Of a DNA stretch of 64,000 bases, positions 938 through 57,561 are shown one piece after another. This DNA comes from a virus, in IMG/VR virus record IMGVR_UViG_3300045988_071562, positions 1-64,000 of that record; one strand, written 5' to 3'. How positions within the stretch are numbered: position 1 is the first letter of the stretch; every line of letters begins with the position of its first letter. Made by a program: the position numbers and the translations under genes. Below the pieces are notes generated by a model that had not been told where the DNA came from, did not search any database, and was given only the letters and a program-made list of their open reading frames with translations.

Positions 938-1277
938 ATACCCAAATAATGGGCAATGAAAGGAGTTGTTTGTTTTGACCCAACTTTTGAATTTGCCCTG
1001 TTCCTTATTGTAGGTCGCAAGCAGAGTAACCTGCGTTACCAAAGTACGTTAAGCAATTTCGTTCACCGTATTGAACAAAATTCCTACATTCGCCAACTAA
1101 TGGGCAGCTAATCTTTTTTTACTCAATCGCAGAACTAAAACTGCGTAAGTGGCGAAGTGTTTCAAGAAACATTTGGTGCTGCTTATGTGACTGAACAAGT
1201 GCGTTCAGTCTGCAAAACACATAAGGTAAACAAATTTAGGCAAGAACTGATAGGACAGCACTCCTGTCAGTTTTTTT
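938..1277 (+). ncRNA. putative ~340-nt plus-strand non-coding/antisense RNA
   Basis: Bounded by the promoter at 903-931 and the terminator at 1247-1277. No SD-led ORF. Perfect hairpin GACTGAAC/GTTCAGTC at 1189-1210. TAATGGGCA is repeated at 947-955 and 1098-1106. Confidence 0.35.
1247..1277 (+). terminator. intrinsic terminator, plus orientation
   Basis: 9-bp stem CTGATAGGA/TCCTGTCAG (one G-U pair), 6-nt loop, then T7. It abuts the stop codon of the minus-strand gene at 1279. Confidence 0.6.
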
Positions 1278-1960: not shown

Positions 1961-1967
1961 AAGAAAA

Positions 1968-2001
1968 GACAAGGGTAATGCGCAAACCCTTGTCTTTTTT
2001 T
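1968..2001 (+). terminator. intrinsic terminator
   Basis: GACAAGGGT/ACCCTTGTC stem followed by T7. Confidence 0.75.
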
Positions 2002-2148
2002 ACACTATCCAATTAACTTTTTCACAAATACATAAATCACTTCTATCCAATGATTATTCGTGCATTTTTCTATCATCTCAATAATTTCTTTCTTGTAATC
2101 CACGTAAATCCCTCCCAATATTCCAAACATCTGTTCTTATTTATTGAA

Positions 2149-2505
2149 TTATATCATGTTTTCATAACCATATAATGGGACGGAATCATCTCCGCTTAAA
2201 TCTTTCCTGGCAAACTGGTTTCTCCTGATTTTTCTATGAACTATAAGTCTTTTTGTGTAAATATTGTGATTTTTGCTTTTCCAAATCGTAATAGTAATAG
2301 ATAGAAATAAAGGGGCTGGATGCTTGTCTGCGAGGGATTTATAGCGCTCATGGACAACCTGTTTTACCTCTGCTTTTGCAGTTTCGATAGTTTTATTCCT
2401 CCCAAAGATAATACTACGATCCGGGCAGAAGTAAACATATTGAATCAAGAGCACATGCACGAATATCAGTATAAACACAATTATGATTTTTTTATGCTTC
2501 TCCAT
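2149..2505 (-). CDS. small N-terminally membrane-anchored protein, unknown function
   Basis: 118 aa with a hydrophobic segment IIIVFILIFVHVLLIQYVYF. It lies downstream of the LytTR-type repeat site. Confidence 0.5.
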   Translation of the reverse strand: MEKHKKIIIVFILIFVHVLLIQYVYFCPDRSIIFGRNKTIETAKAEVKQVVHERYKSLADKHPAPLFLSITITIWKSKNHNIYTKRLIVHRKIRRNQFARKDLSGDDSVPLYGYENMI

Positions 2506-2549
2506 GAATCCATCCCCTTTACACTATCATCTTAATGTATTACAATAAC

Positions 2550-2611
2550 ATTGTATCAAAAAAATACAATCACGCAGGAAATGGCGAAATTAGCACCTCT
2601 GGTGGCGAATT
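2550..2611 (-). promoter_or_regulatory. LytTR-type 9-12-9 direct repeat upstream of an extended -10
   Basis: TGGCGAAAT (2582-2590), a 12-nt spacer, then TGGCGAATT (2603-2611). On the minus strand TGaTACAAT (2558-2550) lies 26 nt downstream, and no good -35 is present. Confidence 0.5.
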
Positions 2612-2634
2612 TTACATGAAAAGGGATGATTTGA

Positions 2635-3336
2635 ATGCGAATTGCAATATGTGATGATAACGAAATCCAGATTGATATATTTATGCATCGGATTAATAAT
2701 TTTCTCAAACGAAATGGTGATATAAAAGCATTGATTACTCCGTATGATAAAGGGCAGCCGCTTATTGATGATGTGGCAGATGGCGAGTGGTATGATATTG
2801 TGGTTTTGGATATCGTTTTGAGAGAAGAAAATGGAATTGAAGTTGCAAAGGAATTGAGATCCAGCGGATATAACGGAAATATTATTTTCTGGACAGCCCA
2901 TAAAGAGTATGTTTTTGAAGCTCTTGATATACTCCCGGTACACTATATTATAAAAGGATCTGAAAACGGCAGAATGTATACTGCTTTCAATCATGCTCTG
3001 GAACATATCAGCAAAAGCACTCTTATGATAAAAGGAAAAGACTTTATTCATCGGGTGGAGTTTCAAAATATAGAATATATTGAGAGCCGAAACAAATACA
3101 TCATTATCCACTGCACTTGCGGTATAGTTTATACGGAACGATGTAAACTATCCGATATTGAAGAATTACTGGATTCCAGATTTTTGAGGTGTCACCAGAG
3201 CTACATAATAAACATGGATGAGGTAAAAGAAATAAACACTTCGTTCCTTATGTTTTCTGGAAATACAGTGCCGATCAGAAGAAAAGATTATGCAAAAATA
3301 AGAAACGAATTTGAGGAATATACGACATTTAAATAG
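2635..3336 (+). CDS. orphan response regulator, receiver plus LytTR DNA-binding domain
   Basis: The receiver has DD (ICDDNE), VVLDI, IIFWTAH and a later K. The C-terminal half is LytTR-like (FIHRVEFQNIEYIESRNKYIIIH...FLRCHQSYIINM). No histidine kinase is in the window. Confidence 0.85.
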   Translation: MRIAICDDNEIQIDIFMHRINNFLKRNGDIKALITPYDKGQPLIDDVADGEWYDIVVLDIVLREENGIEVAKELRSSGYNGNIIFWTAHKEYVFEALDILPVHYIIKGSENGRMYTAFNHALEHISKSTLMIKGKDFIHRVEFQNIEYIESRNKYIIIHCTCGIVYTERCKLSDIEELLDSRFLRCHQSYIINMDEVKEINTSFLMFSGNTVPIRRKDYAKIRNEFEEYTTFK

Positions 3337-3357
3337 CTCCCGGGAAAACCCCGGGAG
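3337..3357. terminator. hairpin between convergent genes
   Basis: CTCCCGGG-aaaac-CCCGGGAG, an 8-bp GC stem between the stops at 3336 and 3363. Confidence 0.6.
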
Positions 3358-3362
3358 TATTA

Positions 3363-4250: not shown

Positions 4251-5249
4251 TTATCCTATATATTTACGGTGATTATACTTCACATCTTCATCTTTTACTT
4301 TTGCGTATATCATAGTGGTATTTACACTAACATGGCCAAGCATTCTCTGGACATCAGTAACAGGAATTGATTTTTGAATCATATCTGTGGCAACTGTATG
4401 TCTAAACAAATGTGGAAATAACTCTCTTCCAATATCAGATCGTTTCCCGAGATTCCTTATAACTCTCTCGATAGCTTCTTTCTTTAAAGAATTGTGTGGC
4501 TTTCTTTCCGATACGAAAAGATATTCGGATTTATCATCTCTGCTATTGAGATATTCGGAAAGATACAAGGCGCACTTTGCTGTAATGTATGATTTCCTGT
4601 GCTTACTTCCTTTTCCAAATAACCATACTTCTCCTTTTTCAAAGTCCACATCAGAAATCTTAATTGTGCAAGTTTCCGTAACCCTGGCACCAGTGCTGTA
4701 AAGAAACTCTACAAGTGCTTTTTCTCGAATATTTTTTCAGGCCATTCTAACTTTTTCCAATTCAATAGCCGTAAGTCCTTCTCGTTCTTTTCTCTCATAC
4801 TTAATAACTTTTATTGCTCTGCAAGGATTCTTCCCGATATACCCCTCATTTGCAGCCCACTCGAAAAAAGCATGAAGCGCTGACCTGCGACTATCCAATG
4901 TACGATTGCTAATATTCCGTTCCTTCTGTGTGTAATACAAATATGCTCGAATATCATTTGAAGTAATATCAGAAATATCTTTATCCATTCGAGAAAAGAA
5001 ATCATCCAGATACATTTGATATAATTCAATTGTTTTGTTACTTAGTCCCTCAATTTTTCGACTTACAAGATAAATCTTAAAACATTCTGGCAGATACCCC
5101 TTGTATTTACCAATGGCTGTTTCCCTACGTTCAATATCATAGTCCTGTACGTGAAGAAACAATTCATTCTGGACAAGTTTTAAGACTTCATCAGACACTT
5201 TTCCGTAAAGTTTGGCGGTGAATTCATTTGAAAATTGTTCTCTCATCAT
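4251..5249 (-). pseudogene. XerC/D-like tyrosine recombinase interrupted by one in-frame TGA (4737-4739)
   Basis: ORFs 4251-4649 and 4737-5273 share a frame and are open right across the TGA: ...EKVRMA*KNIREKALVEFLYSTGARVTE... Catalytic R, HxxR and terminal Y motifs are all intact. The SD-led ATG is at 5249. Confidence 0.8.
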
Positions 5250-5268
5250 AAAAATCCCTCCTTTTGGG

Positions 5269-5297
5269 TTCACAAAGGGAGAGTACTGTGCTATAAT
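5269..5297 (+). promoter_or_regulatory. promoter TTCACA-17-TGcTATAAT
   Basis: -35 at 5269-5274 and extended -10 at 5289-5297, antisense to the recombinase 5' region. Confidence 0.45.
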
Positions 5298-17503: not shown

Positions 17504-17597
17504 AGTGTGTCCTCCCTGTCCCATTCTGTGTCAGATTTATCTGACATAATAATATCGTTAGATATTATTCAAAATATAATTCTTTCTCTTTTTCTTA

Positions 17598-17711
17598 ATC
17601 TAAATCTATATCTAAATCTATATCTAAATCTATATCTAAATCTATATCTAAATCTAAACCTTTATCTAAACCTTAATCTGAGTGCGTCTACTATGCGTCT
17701 TTTGTGCGTCT
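17598..17711. repeat. iteron block: 4.5 copies of the 12-mer ATCTAAATCTAT, degenerate copies, then TGCGTCT x3 at 11-bp spacing
   Basis: Perfect 12-mers span 17598-17645. TGCGTCT occurs at 17683, 17694 and 17705. The block is homologous to 59150-59267 inside the replisome-organizer gene. Confidence 0.8.
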
Positions 17712-17832
17712 AAAAAAATAAGAACTCTAAATTCGTCATTTTTATATTATATTTCACCAAAATTCAACTTGTAAAAATACATATTTTCTCTGTTATGCTG
17801 ATTTTTACAGATTTTTGTATCGAAATAAAATT

Positions 17833-40329: not shown

Positions 40330-41532
40330 TTATTCACTTGCTTTAAAGTTATATATAGGTTTGATAATATCAATTATTTCTACGGTATCTTTGATGTTAT
40401 CAATAATTTCTTGCGGTGTTTTGTAAGCCATAGGGCTTTCATCAATTGTAGATTTATGAACGGATGTTGTATATATTCCATCCATAGACTCCTTAAATTC
40501 TTCTAACGAAATGTTTTCTTTTGCTTTTGACCGGCTCATAATACGTCCTGCGCCATGCGGGGCTGAACAGTTCCAATCCTCGTTTCCTTTCCCGACTGCA
40601 ATAATGCATCCGTCTCGCATATTCATGGGGATAAGAACTTTTTCACCATACTTAGCTGATATCGCACCTTTCCGAACAATATTTGTATCGTGGTCAATAT
40701 AATTATGAATTGTGTCAAACCATGTATTTCTTTGAAGCGTCCAATTCATGCTGTAGAATATAGCCGACTGTATACACCGTCTGTTTATTCTTGCAAATTC
40801 TTGACAGATTTTCATATCATGCAGATATTGTTTTCTGTGTTCTCCTGTCAAGTAGCACAATTCTTTCGGAATGTCAAGTTTGTCTGGCTTCCATTTTCGT
40901 TTTAATTCGTCAATACCATTTTGAATTTCCTTGTGCCTGCCAGAGCACTTGTATTCTTTTATTAATTTCTGTATTTCAGTTTCAAGTTTATCTGTGCTCC
41001 GCATATCTTCTATGGCAATTTTTTGATATATTTCAGCTACTTGCTTCCCAAGGTTGCGACTTCCAGTATGAATTACAAGGTATTTTGCACCTTTTGAATT
41101 GGTGTCAACTTCAATAAAATGATTTCCACCCCCAAGTGTACCAAGGCTCCTGCGAATCCATTCGATATTTTTAAGCTGATGAAAGCAGTGAAGTTCTTCT
41201 AATTCTTCAAAATTTATGATTTCGTCACGTACATTTCTTCCTGCTGGAACATTGTTTCTTATTACTTCGTCAAGTTTTTTTAAATCTATTGTTCCCACAT
41301 CGGTAGGAATTTGTGTTGTAAGCATTCCACATCCAATGTCCACGCCAACAATGTTTGGAATTACTTTATCTCCGAGATCAGCAGTAAAGCCAATTACACA
41401 TCCTGCTCCTGCGTGAACATCTGGCATGATTCGTACTTTGCATTCAGAAAATGCAGGCTGTTTTATCAATGCATAAATCTGATTTAATGCTTCTGGTTCG
41501 ATATTTTCTGTAAATATCTTCAAGTCACTCAT
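40330..41532 (-). CDS. rtcB: RNA ligase RtcB
   Basis: 400 aa with GCGM, NHFIE, HTGSRNLG and APHGAGR motifs characteristic of RtcB. Confidence 0.9.
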   Translation of the reverse strand: MSDLKIFTENIEPEALNQIYALIKQPAFSECKVRIMPDVHAGAGCVIGFTADLGDKVIPNIVGVDIGCGMLTTQIPTDVGTIDLKKLDEVIRNNVPAGRNVRDEIINFEELEELHCFHQLKNIEWIRRSLGTLGGGNHFIEVDTNSKGAKYLVIHTGSRNLGKQVAEIYQKIAIEDMRSTDKLETEIQKLIKEYKCSGRHKEIQNGIDELKRKWKPDKLDIPKELCYLTGEHRKQYLHDMKICQEFARINRRCIQSAIFYSMNWTLQRNTWFDTIHNYIDHDTNIVRKGAISAKYGEKVLIPMNMRDGCIIAVGKGNEDWNCSAPHGAGRIMSRSKAKENISLEEFKESMDGIYTTSVHKSTIDESPMAYKTPQEIIDNIKDTVEIIDIIKPIYNFKASE

Positions 41533-55767: not shown

Positions 55768-57480
55768 TTATAGTGCTAAAAGGTACTTATATTTGAAAAA
55801 TACCATATCTTGTGTCTTAATGCAAGTTTTCCTACTAAATATATTGTGTTGTTCTGAATGTAGAGTTAAAATCATATCGTCAGAACAACGCAAAGGAAAT
55901 CCCCATTTTTCAAGGTTTCCAGACCTCAATTGAAATGTTAGTGTTGCACATGTAGCCGCCAACGGTTCCACGGTAATTTTTTCAAAAAGTTCATTGATAA
56001 TCTGCCTGTTAATGTCTTTTGGAGTAACGCCCTTAAACTTTTCTAACTGTTCTTTAATAGCACTTAATTGTATTTCTACTGGCTCTGGACTTTTGGTATT
56101 TTGGATTTCTAGAATATGGCTCTCAATCTGCTTTATCTGCTTCACGTATTCTTTATTTCTTGAAATAAATTCATCATCAGATATTTTTCCGTCCAGATTA
56201 TATTCCAGTATTTTTTCACGTTTTTGTTTTAATAGATCAATCTGTTTTTTAAGTCGTGAGATTTCGTTTTTATTGTCTGGAATGTTTTTGATCGAGGACT
56301 GCAAAATTTCAAAATATTCCTCCAAAATGCTATCAATGTTTTCAGAAGATTTATTTATTAATTCTGCGATTACTTCTTTCAGTTCTGATTCTGCCAGTCC
56401 AAATGAATCACATGAAGCTGCTCCGTTTTTTATCTTATAACTACATACCCATCGAACATCTTCTTTTCCTCGAATATAATGTTGCTTCATCCAGTATGGT
56501 GCTCCGTCGTTAGCACAGAAAAGTTTTCCAGTGAAAATATTTTCACTCTTAAAAGAGGTTTTTCTTGATTTTATAGCTTCTCCGCGCTCCCTTAAATACG
56601 CATTTGCTTTTTCCCAAGTAATCTCGTCAATAATCTGCGGTACTCTGGAACCATCGTCTTTAAACATTACCCATTCTGACTGCGGAAGAAATTCCTGCTT
56701 TTTTGTGAACATATCAACGATCTTGACTTTTCCTCCGCAATAGTATCCTTTGTATTTTGGATTCCGAATAATATTTTTTATGACATCTCTACTGATCTTA
56801 CCGCCTTTGAAACTTCTATATCCCATATTCCAGAGTTTTTTTTCGATTCTTGGTGTAGACATTCCAGAAGCATAGTCTCGAAAGACCATTCGAACCATAT
56901 CTGCTTCTTCCGGTATTAGCTCAAGTTTTCCTTGATGATTTGAGTATCCATACATTCTGTGTCCAAGTACAACACCGTTTTTAATTGACTGTGCATGTCC
57001 AAATTTTATTCTTGAAGATAATTTTCTGATTTCGTCCTGTGCTACTCCAGCCATAATTGTTAGCCTAAGTTCACTATCTTCATCAATGGTATTGATTCCG
57101 TCATTTTGGAACCACACGCACACACCGTAAGACAACAATTCTCTGGTATATTGGATACTATCAAGAGTGTTTCTTGCAAATCTTGAAATTTCTTTTGTGA
57201 TAATCATATCAATTTTTCCAAGTTTTGCATCTCTGAGCATTCTTTGAAATTCTTCTCTTTTATCTGCGTGCATTCCAGAAATACCATCATCAATGTAAGA
57301 ACCTGCAAACTTCCATCTGTTGTTAGAATGTATCAGTTCTTCAAAATGTTCTTCCTGATGTTTGATGGATGCTTGCTGCTCAAGTTTTTCCGTTGAAACC
57401 CTGGCATAATAAGCAACATTTAATTCAATGTCGTAAATAGAGCAACTTCTTAATTTTTCTCTGACATAATAAATATTCAT
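55768..57480 (-). CDS. large serine recombinase (phage integrase type)
   Basis: YARVSTEKLEQ catalytic motif in a resolvase domain, then recombinase and zinc-ribbon-like regions and a coiled coil. 570 aa from the SD-led MNIYYV. Confidence 0.9.
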   Translation of the reverse strand: MNIYYVREKLRSCSIYDIELNVAYYARVSTEKLEQQASIKHQEEHFEELIHSNNRWKFAGSYIDDGISGMHADKREEFQRMLRDAKLGKIDMIITKEISRFARNTLDSIQYTRELLSYGVCVWFQNDGINTIDEDSELRLTIMAGVAQDEIRKLSSRIKFGHAQSIKNGVVLGHRMYGYSNHQGKLELIPEEADMVRMVFRDYASGMSTPRIEKKLWNMGYRSFKGGKISRDVIKNIIRNPKYKGYYCGGKVKIVDMFTKKQEFLPQSEWVMFKDDGSRVPQIIDEITWEKANAYLRERGEAIKSRKTSFKSENIFTGKLFCANDGAPYWMKQHYIRGKEDVRWVCSYKIKNGAASCDSFGLAESELKEVIAELINKSSENIDSILEEYFEILQSSIKNIPDNKNEISRLKKQIDLLKQKREKILEYNLDGKISDDEFISRNKEYVKQIKQIESHILEIQNTKSPEPVEIQLSAIKEQLEKFKGVTPKDINRQIINELFEKITVEPLAATCATLTFQLRSGNLEKWGFPLRCSDDMILTLHSEQHNIFSRKTCIKTQDMVFFKYKYLLAL

Positions 57481-57561
57481 AGTGCATTTCTCCCTCAATA
57501 AACAGGGAGTGGAATCATATAAAGTATAACACCTCACATAACTCCACTCAATACATTTTCG

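Follow-up and report, generated by a model that had tools for sequence, protein, structure and literature searches.

What does an orphan response regulator do in the lysogeny region of a gut phage, and which promoter does it read? The question is raised by the window, the whole stretch of 64,000 nucleotides (nt) analysed here (positions 1 to 64,000 of IMG/VR virus record IMGVR_UViG_3300045988_071562), which covers most of the ~80-kb genome of a temperate phage that infects Blautia-like gut bacteria. The window encodes a response regulator with a receiver and a LytTR domain, and a protein of 118 amino acids (aa) with one hydrophobic helix is encoded divergently from it. The region between the two genes contains a pair of 9-bp direct repeats, termed boxes. 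The boxes and their geometry in the phage are identical with those at two-component loci of host chromosomes. The best explanation, in which we place about even confidence, is that the lysogeny region of this phage holds the output half of an Agr-type circuit, working in the steps set out below.

The domain content of the regulator agrees with the first-pass annotation, which had described an intact receiver fused to a LytTR domain. Pfam assigns residues 3-117 to Response_reg (6e-11) and residues 138-224 to LytTR (PF04397, 3.7e-18), and the LytTR domain gives weak matches to the solved LytTR domains 3d6w and 3bs1. A full-length match to phrog_8810 was observed with E = 2.5e-41 (protein residues 1-228; profile positions 1-242 of 245). 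The acidic pocket (D7/D8), the phospho-acceptor D59 in the VVLDI motif, T87 and K107 are all present. The same residues are kept in the aligned cellular relatives and in phage clades down to 47% identity, with the exception of one variant (P0045), and this conservation argues for a working phospho-switch. With its receiver, its LytTR domain and the paired repeats, the protein falls within the LytTR-family response regulators (AgrA/ComE/AlgR/LytR type). The closest cellular relatives in species-representative genomes come from Oscillospiraceae and allies and are at most 38% identical (range 33-38%), and the phage LytTR domain is likewise 38% identical to the Oscillospiraceae type. Of the top 35 cellular relatives, about one third have as a neighbour a PAS-HisKA-HATPase-receiver hybrid kinase, an Hpt protein or the two together. 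In two relatives the receiver and LytTR domains are fused to Hpt, and a 30%-identical relative lies near a hybrid kinase in Blautia faecis. A scan of species genomes with the single regulator sequence returned nothing useful.

The regulator is a phage-borne orphan. Pfam detects neither a kinase domain nor an AgrC-type (HATPase_c_5) kinase among the large open reading frames (ORFs) of the window, in agreement with the earlier claim that the 64 kb contain no histidine kinase. A kinase gene just outside the window, which had been named as a possible refutation, was looked for in a 97%-identical relative (L076, L102, L191), in which the ~20 kb beyond the window carry replication and recombination genes only. 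Searches by tblastn covered the window and these remaining ~20 kb of the relative genome. With AgrB, four AgrC-like kinases, two hybrid kinases, an Hpt protein and a Blautia agrD-like ORF as queries, nothing was found below E = 0.3; the four AgrC-like queries gave no match below E = 1, and two queries for the AgrB peptidase none below E = 2. The agrD-like query also gave no match, short peptides being hard to exclude. No adjacent kinase was observed at any phage regulator locus examined. Measured against a complete agrBDCA system, AgrB and AgrC were thus not found, and a promoter with Agr-type boxes is present; the module does not amount to a full agr locus.

The boxes TGGCGAAAT and TGGCGAATT are separated by a 12-nt spacer (21 nt from start to start), exactly the 9-12-9 arrangement first reported for this region (Table 1). 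When the 129-nt region is shuffled, 1-2% of the shuffled sequences contain a direct repeat of 9 nt with one mismatch or none at 21-nt spacing, and the same class is found in 3% of real 129-nt segments of the phage genome. Because about 3% of such segments carry one, the repeat alone is only suggestive. It becomes convincing through the comparison with diverged phage clades, with the constant slot of the regulator, and with host loci. The pair reads TGGCAAAAT/TGGCGAAAT in L001, TGTCAAAAA/TGGCAAAAT in L016, TGTCAAAAT/TGACAAAAT in L018 and TGTTAAAAA/TGGCAAAAT in L306, which gives a consensus of TGNCRAAAT across the phage clades, with diverged spacers. In the phage clades, the pair ends 20-24 nt before the ATG of the regulator, and 23-25 nt separate its start from the TG that belongs to the -10 element on the minus strand. 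In L018, extra genes split the membrane-protein gene from the regulator gene and a box pair stands at both; relative to its start, the membrane-protein gene has its pair at +68/+89, compared with +77/+98 in the window. On these comparisons, we read the repeats as a genuine LytTR-type element. That they are a chance feature without function, as the background frequency of about 3% might suggest, is hardly credible: the pair is conserved in several clades with diverged spacers, the perfect 9-12-9 consensus has a single occurrence in the 64 kb, and the same element stands beside 45 of 80 host two-component loci.

Table 1. Features of the regulator locus, in coordinates of the window.
Feature	Position	Strand	Remarks
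Hairpin with T-run between the convergent repressor and small gene	1966..2002		Read by eye
32-aa gene (MDYKKEIIEMI...), second in the divergent operon	2005..2103	-	GTG start 6 nt after a GGGAGGG ribosome-binding site
118-aa protein gene	2149..2505	-	One N-terminal hydrophobic helix; predicted target of the box promoter
Predicted regulator promoter TTTACA-17-TACAAT	2518..2546	+	Promoter scan, 10 of 12; conserved in all clades
Divergent extended -10 TGaTACAAT, no -35	2550..2558	-	Direct reading of the sequence
Box 1, TGGCGAAAT (ATTTCGCCA on the minus strand)	2582..2590	+	Nearer the membrane-protein promoter; conserved across phage clades
Box 2, TGGCGAATT	2603..2611	+	Nearer the regulator gene; ends 23 nt before ATG
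Orphan response regulator gene, 233 aa	2635..3336	+	Receiver ~nt 2641-2985; LytTR ~nt 3046-3306
Terminator-like hairpin after the regulator gene	3336..3358	+	Hairpin scan

The slot that holds the regulator is the same in every phage or prophage relative examined (~46-100% identity). Its left part consists of a CI-like repressor gene (+), a small ORF (-) and the gene of the one-helix membrane protein (-). Its right part consists of an optional inserted gene (+), the regulator gene (+) and then either the endolysin gene or, at the prophage end, SHOCT and integrase genes. The proximity to a CI-like repressor and an endolysin noted at first reading recurs in the phage relatives, where an integrase may take the place of the endolysin. 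The optional inserts include a Big_2 surface protein, an Mrr nuclease and others. Blautia obeum prophages carry a version of the regulator with 62% identity, for which the assembly index lists 1556 blocks. The type of repressor varies among loci with identical regulator and boxes, such that the boxes track the regulator and not the repressor.

Matching boxes are present in host chromosomes. An exact-pattern scan of species genomes gave mostly chance matches in unrelated phyla, and four loci beside LytTR regulators were informative; there, the LytTR regulator is followed by a HATPase_c_5 (AgrC-type) kinase, and AgrB is also found in one. The regulators of these four loci were used to retrieve 80 Lachnospiraceae loci, including Blautia (L427-L506). 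An AgrC-like kinase gene immediately follows the regulator gene at 79 of the 80, and at 45 of the 80 the element TGGCGAAAT-N12/13-TG[GC]CGAAAT directly follows the kinase gene and is oriented away from the gene beyond it (threshold, a box-pair score of at least 15 of 16). AgrB is detectable nearby in only 4 of the 80, so that most of these loci represent two-component systems of the AgrC/A type rather than complete agr loci. The genes downstream of the Lachnospiraceae box promoters vary, and most encode unannotated secreted or small proteins.

The arrangement in two Blautia loci can be compared with the phage position by position. In L460, ATTTCGCCA-N12-ATTTCGCCA is followed after 24 nt by TGgTAAAAT, by an agrD-like ORF and by AgrB (1e-37). 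This ORF ends with ...DSTCKWVTYQPKETE...; it was judged agrD-like by eye and has no Pfam match. The same arrangement is observed in L462, with TGtTATTAT as the -10 element. On the minus strand of the phage, AATTCGCCA-N12-ATTTCGCCA is followed after 23 nt by TGaTACAAT, and the distance from box to TG is thus 23 nt in the phage compared with 24 nt in L460 and L462. Like boxes are also found 5-10 nt upstream of the -35 position at homologues of the phage regulator (L285, L286 and L290). This is the canonical position for LytTR regulators, whose 9-bp repeats, with 12 bp between them, immediately precede the -35 (PMC6193735).

The divergent promoter of the phage has the geometry of an LytTR target. 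Between its proximal repeat and the TG are 23 nt, or 26 nt if counted to the hexamer, and the -35 position reads CCTGCG, which bears out the initial description of an extended -10 element lacking a -35. The predicted transcript start of this minus-strand promoter is near 2543, which would place the boxes at about -39 to -68; they lie 3 nt upstream of its -35 position. The unit TTCGCCA-N23-TGaTACAAT is unique in the window, and the relaxed form TTCGCCA-N22-25-TGnTAnnnT occurs once in 64 kb, compared with 0.05 expected. Counterparts of the minus-strand -10 element (TGcTATAAT in L001, TGtTATAGT in L010 and TGcTATAAT in L018) lie 23-25 nt from a box.

The regulator has a predicted, near-consensus promoter of its own, which was overlooked in the first-pass account of the control region, as was the 32-aa gene of the divergent operon; the boxes in that account were correct. 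The hexamers of this plus-strand promoter (2518-2523 and 2541-2546) are among the top-scoring matches in the scan. In 8 clades, the -35 hexamer and the key -10 positions are invariant, with the form TTTACA-17-TAnAnT. A ribosome-binding site is the fourth conserved element of the control region. The predicted regulator transcript starts near 2553 and has a leader of ~80 nt, in which the boxes would span ~+29 to +58. Because the regulator promoter reads through the boxes, they would also form an operator in the regulator's leader. The plus- and minus-strand -10 elements stand back to back. They account for the palindrome TACAATaacATTGTA (2541-2555), which was considered as a repressor operator and rejected; it equals the two back-to-back -10 elements, and the repeats of the repressor/Cro region differ from it. 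An RNA element in the regulator leader was also ruled out, since the fold of the leader RNA is unremarkable (z = 0.06) and Rfam gives no match in the leader region. With an unremarkable leader fold, the element is best read as a DNA site.

The explanation that we favour, an output half of an Agr-type circuit, would operate as follows. The regulator would be transcribed from its own strong, constitutive-type promoter, and D59 would be phosphorylated by a host-supplied donor, which may be a kinase, an Hpt protein or acetyl phosphate. The phosphorylated regulator would bind the boxes as a dimer and, from ~-39 to -68, would activate the -35-less extended -10 promoter of the divergent operon. The activated operon would yield the membrane-anchored or secreted 118-aa protein together with the 32-aa protein. 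Occupancy of the boxes would lower the regulator's own expression; such a reduction is expected from the position of the boxes within the leader and from the back-to-back -10 elements, and AgrA is known to act as a repressor when bound downstream of a promoter (PMC4227749). Host Agr-type regulators may work at the phage promoter and, conversely, host promoters may respond to the phage regulator. This two-way cross-talk at the DNA level is plausible because the Lachnospiraceae AgrC/AgrA-type systems use the same boxes, and it is plausible that the phage and host Agr-type regulators share DNA specificity. The earlier proposal that the phage taps a host Agr/Com-like kinase finds support only in the shared DNA boxes. 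The receiver is just ~25% identical to those of Agr-type regulators, and its closest cellular relatives are often neighbours of hybrid kinases and Hpt proteins or are fused to Hpt.

Several observations weigh against this explanation. The first group concerns the promoter. The box promoter had been called activator-dependent at first reading; its layout equals that of the Blautia agrD-like/agrB promoter, but an extended -10 promoter can work without an activator. A very common clade of Blautia obeum prophages (L010, L304) has one box; box 2 is missing, and the intergenic region is shorter by exactly one 21-bp unit. In L016 and L306, a clear box pair is found only beside the regulator gene, and the link to the membrane-protein gene is therefore not universal. 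The boxes could be an autoregulatory operator and nothing else, with the membrane-protein operon constitutively expressed from the extended -10 element. In all clades, the conserved TTTACA-17-TAnAnT promoter precedes the boxes; the inserted genes of L016 and L306 leave them beside the regulator gene, and the repression by AgrA from a downstream site provides a precedent (PMC4227749). We nevertheless consider an operator of this kind unlikely. The Blautia agrD-like/agrB promoter has the same box orientation and the same distance of 23-24 nt to an extended -10 that lacks a -35, the second box pair of L018 stands at the membrane-protein gene, and the box that remains in L010 is the one placed for the minus-strand promoter, 24 nt from TGtTATAGT.

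The second group of contrary observations concerns the protein. The receiver lysine is followed by G, where P is usual, and the natural variant P0045 carries D8S and D59E. Together with the orphan state of the regulator, these features would fit an atypical regulator that works independently of phosphorylation, with no host donor. Such a regulator appears quite improbable, since all other phage clades to 47% identity retain the full phospho-acceptor set and the boxes of P0045 are also degenerate.

The phage LytTR domain is, in addition, just 20-26% identical to those of the host Agr-type regulators that share the boxes. A host AgrA-like regulator might then be the main reader of the boxes, and the phage regulator a competitor or decoy that sits on Agr-type boxes, those of host promoters among them, and thereby blunts or rewires host signalling, and not the activator of the phage operon. 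The box sequence and promoter geometry, which are the same as at host loci, and the lack of a kinase of its own would agree with a decoy. Three features argue against it and make it rather unlikely in our judgement. The box variants follow the clade of the phage regulator: position 5 is A in the 47-50% phage clades and G in nearly all host loci, which fits the phage regulator as the cognate reader of its own boxes. The distance from the boxes to the regulator ATG is fixed at 20-24 nt. The strict conservation of D7, D8, D59, T87 and K107 argues for an active phospho-switch.

If the output half of an Agr-type circuit is retained as the preferred reading, the products of the divergent operon are its predicted output. 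The 118-aa protein was described at first as membrane-anchored, and would be either membrane-anchored or secreted. It has 178 relatives without a functional name (Blautia, Caudoviricetes; the source names are Blautia faecis and Caudoviricetes) and counterparts in all clades. A profile search of 1.84 billion representatives found 7 clusters, and the family is narrow. Its members share the C-terminal motif Q[LF][PA]R[GAK][ND][IL]xG in all clades, and the rest of the sequence diverges fast. This motif (QLPRGN...) was considered as an arbitrium or AgrD peptide and rejected, as its length and position do not fit. No match to the 118-aa protein was found in Pfam, PHROG or PADLOC, and an AlphaFold model built on a shallow alignment has a mean predicted local distance difference test (pLDDT) score of 51. 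The basic N-terminus suggests that the C-terminal part of the protein is extracellular. Small ORFs homologous to the 32-aa gene (32-38 aa) are present in L001, L010, L011, L015, L016 and L018; their first 11 residues are near-invariant and the remainder is variable. The gene has a strong ribosome-binding site and is convergent to the 3' end of the repressor gene. Relatives of the 32-aa protein, retrieved with a 41-aa version as the query, are hypothetical proteins only, and neither PHROG nor PADLOC gave a match. The hairpin between the convergent genes is likely a bidirectional terminator; it is not listed by the hairpin scan because its loop exceeds 8 nt. A lysogen-expressed envelope or exclusion function would be the most likely role of the two output proteins.

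Which known systems does this module resemble? The phage box TGGCGAAAT is presumably different from the staphylococcal AgrA consensus. The phage shares with AgrA and agr P2/P3 of Staphylococcus aureus, and with clostridial Agr, a receiver and LytTR regulator, 9-bp direct repeats 12-13 bp apart and a promoter with a poor -35 or spacing (PMC4227749, PMC6193735). In contrast to Agr systems, no agrB or agrC was found in the phage, and its boxes are at the same time part of the leader of the regulator. The uncharacterised AgrC/AgrA-type loci of Lachnospiraceae and Blautia have the boxes TGGCGAAAT-N12-TGGCGAAAT in the same orientation; unlike the phage, they carry a kinase after the regulator (79/80) and have other output genes. 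CdtR of Clostridioides difficile, an orphan, is encoded on a separate accessory locus. It is described as a LytTR response regulator controlling adjacent toxin genes (PMC9882218, citing Carter 2007). It is likened to the phage regulator here by description only, is not phage-borne and has other targets. The HdrRM and BrsRM regulators have no receiver domain, and their membrane protein is an inhibitor encoded in the regulator's operon. In the phage, in contrast, a receiver is present, and the membrane protein is divergently encoded, has a single helix and probably has an external C-terminus, so that the phage pair does not belong to this type. The two Streptococcus mutans systems do combine a LytTR regulator and a small membrane protein with 9-bp repeats 12 bp apart (PMC6193735).

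Among phages, the temperate clostridial phage phiCDHM1 carries agrB, agrD and agrC without the regulator (PMC3901668; review, PMC11945551), and the phage described here carries the complementary half, a regulator with a box promoter. LytTR proteins in Pseudomonas phages are mentioned in the same review (PMC11945551). Phage receiver-LytTR proteins are also catalogued as phrog_8810 and as the 'two-component response regulator' of the C. difficile phages LIBA2945 and LIBA6276, which differ in being annotated as function unknown and are at most 34% identical to the window regulator. VqmA of vibriophage VP882 is reportedly a prophage-borne, copy-like regulator whose DNA targets are also those of a quorum-sensing regulator of the host, and its output reportedly triggers lysis. 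It belongs to another protein family and answers another signal. The topic of phage quorum sensing is reviewed in PMC7790227. A literature search found no description of such a module, of its boxes or of its promoter, nor of kinase-less Agr-type regulators in lysogeny modules of abundant commensal gut phages.

The window has a G+C content of 37% and contains tail, capsid, terminase, endolysin, CI/Cro-like, antirepressor and recombinase genes. In its coordinates, it corresponds to the first part of the 84-kb IMG/VR contig L022. Relatives of the regulator are encoded on 169 IMG/VR stretches, the 80 best of which are at least 96% identical. Most of the regulator-bearing relatives are 78-85-kb contigs with differing start points, which fits a circular or permuted genome of ~80 kb. 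INPHARED contains no near-identical isolated phage.

Further features of the lysogeny region were recorded. Between the membrane-protein and regulator genes lies an insertion hot spot (L016 4839-5735, L018 4747-5812, L303 2733-3740, L306 2511-3746), occupied by Big_2 surface proteins, by a small membrane protein with a secreted protein, or by an Mrr-type nuclease, each with its own promoter and terminator. The FuFi-1 RNA family (RF02986) matches the window at 1104-1276 (+), between the antirepressor gene and the Cro-like gene, with 129.8 bits compared with a gathering score of 59.6. The repressor/Cro intergenic region (1490-1560) contains the direct repeats TTGACTTyGTGAGTTT, which overlap a TTGACT-17-TATATT promoter; these repeats are likely repressor operators and are distinct from the regulator boxes. 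Four chimeric proteins were found in metagenome assemblies (P0025, P0039, P0073 and P0079). Two join the helix-turn-helix N-terminus of a repressor to the C-terminal part of the regulator, one joins a coiled-coil N-terminus to a LytTR domain, and in one a resolvase C-terminus follows residues 1-59 of the regulator. Such chimeras may have arisen naturally, by deletion or recombination, or else during assembly as artefacts. A tyrosine recombinase gene at 4251-5273 (-) is interrupted by one in-frame stop near 4735 (...EKVRMA*KNIREK...). At this position, relatives carry an intact gene of 332-333 aa, a gene resembling those of homing endonucleases, or no gene at all, and the recombinase is a variable insert that is probably inactive in the window.

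Elsewhere in the window, a second candidate box site at 17730-17759 (-), with one mismatch, was set aside as probably a chance match; it overlaps an ordinary TTTACA-18-TATAAT promoter of a membrane-protein/lipoprotein pair. The long leader of this pair (17524-16422, -), among the tail genes, contains a tandem array at 17593-17679, in which the 12-nt unit ATCTAAATCTAT is repeated 4.9 times inside a 6-nt periodicity of 14.5 copies. An RtcB RNA ligase (2e-64) is encoded at 40330-41532 (-) and a large serine recombinase at 55768-57537 (-), the latter adjoining DUF4417, DUF4317 and radical-SAM genes.

The use of bacterial communication by phages is known from few systems: arbitrium, the VP882 receptor and the agrBDC cassette of phiCDHM1. 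Our tentative suggestion, to which we give somewhat less than even confidence, is that a very common family of temperate phages of Blautia and other gut Lachnospiraceae keeps the output half of host peptide quorum sensing within its lysogeny control region, by which the prophage would eavesdrop on or rewire density signalling, with an envelope or exclusion protein as the output and possibly an effect on the lysis-lysogeny balance. If true, this module would be a Gram-positive, two-component counterpart of the vibriophage quorum-sensing receptors. The module is widespread and has in common with the Agr-type loci of the host a precise, testable DNA target. A real link would provide a handle on how gut prophages sense the state of the host population, on how they may alter host signalling and on the roles of the output proteins.

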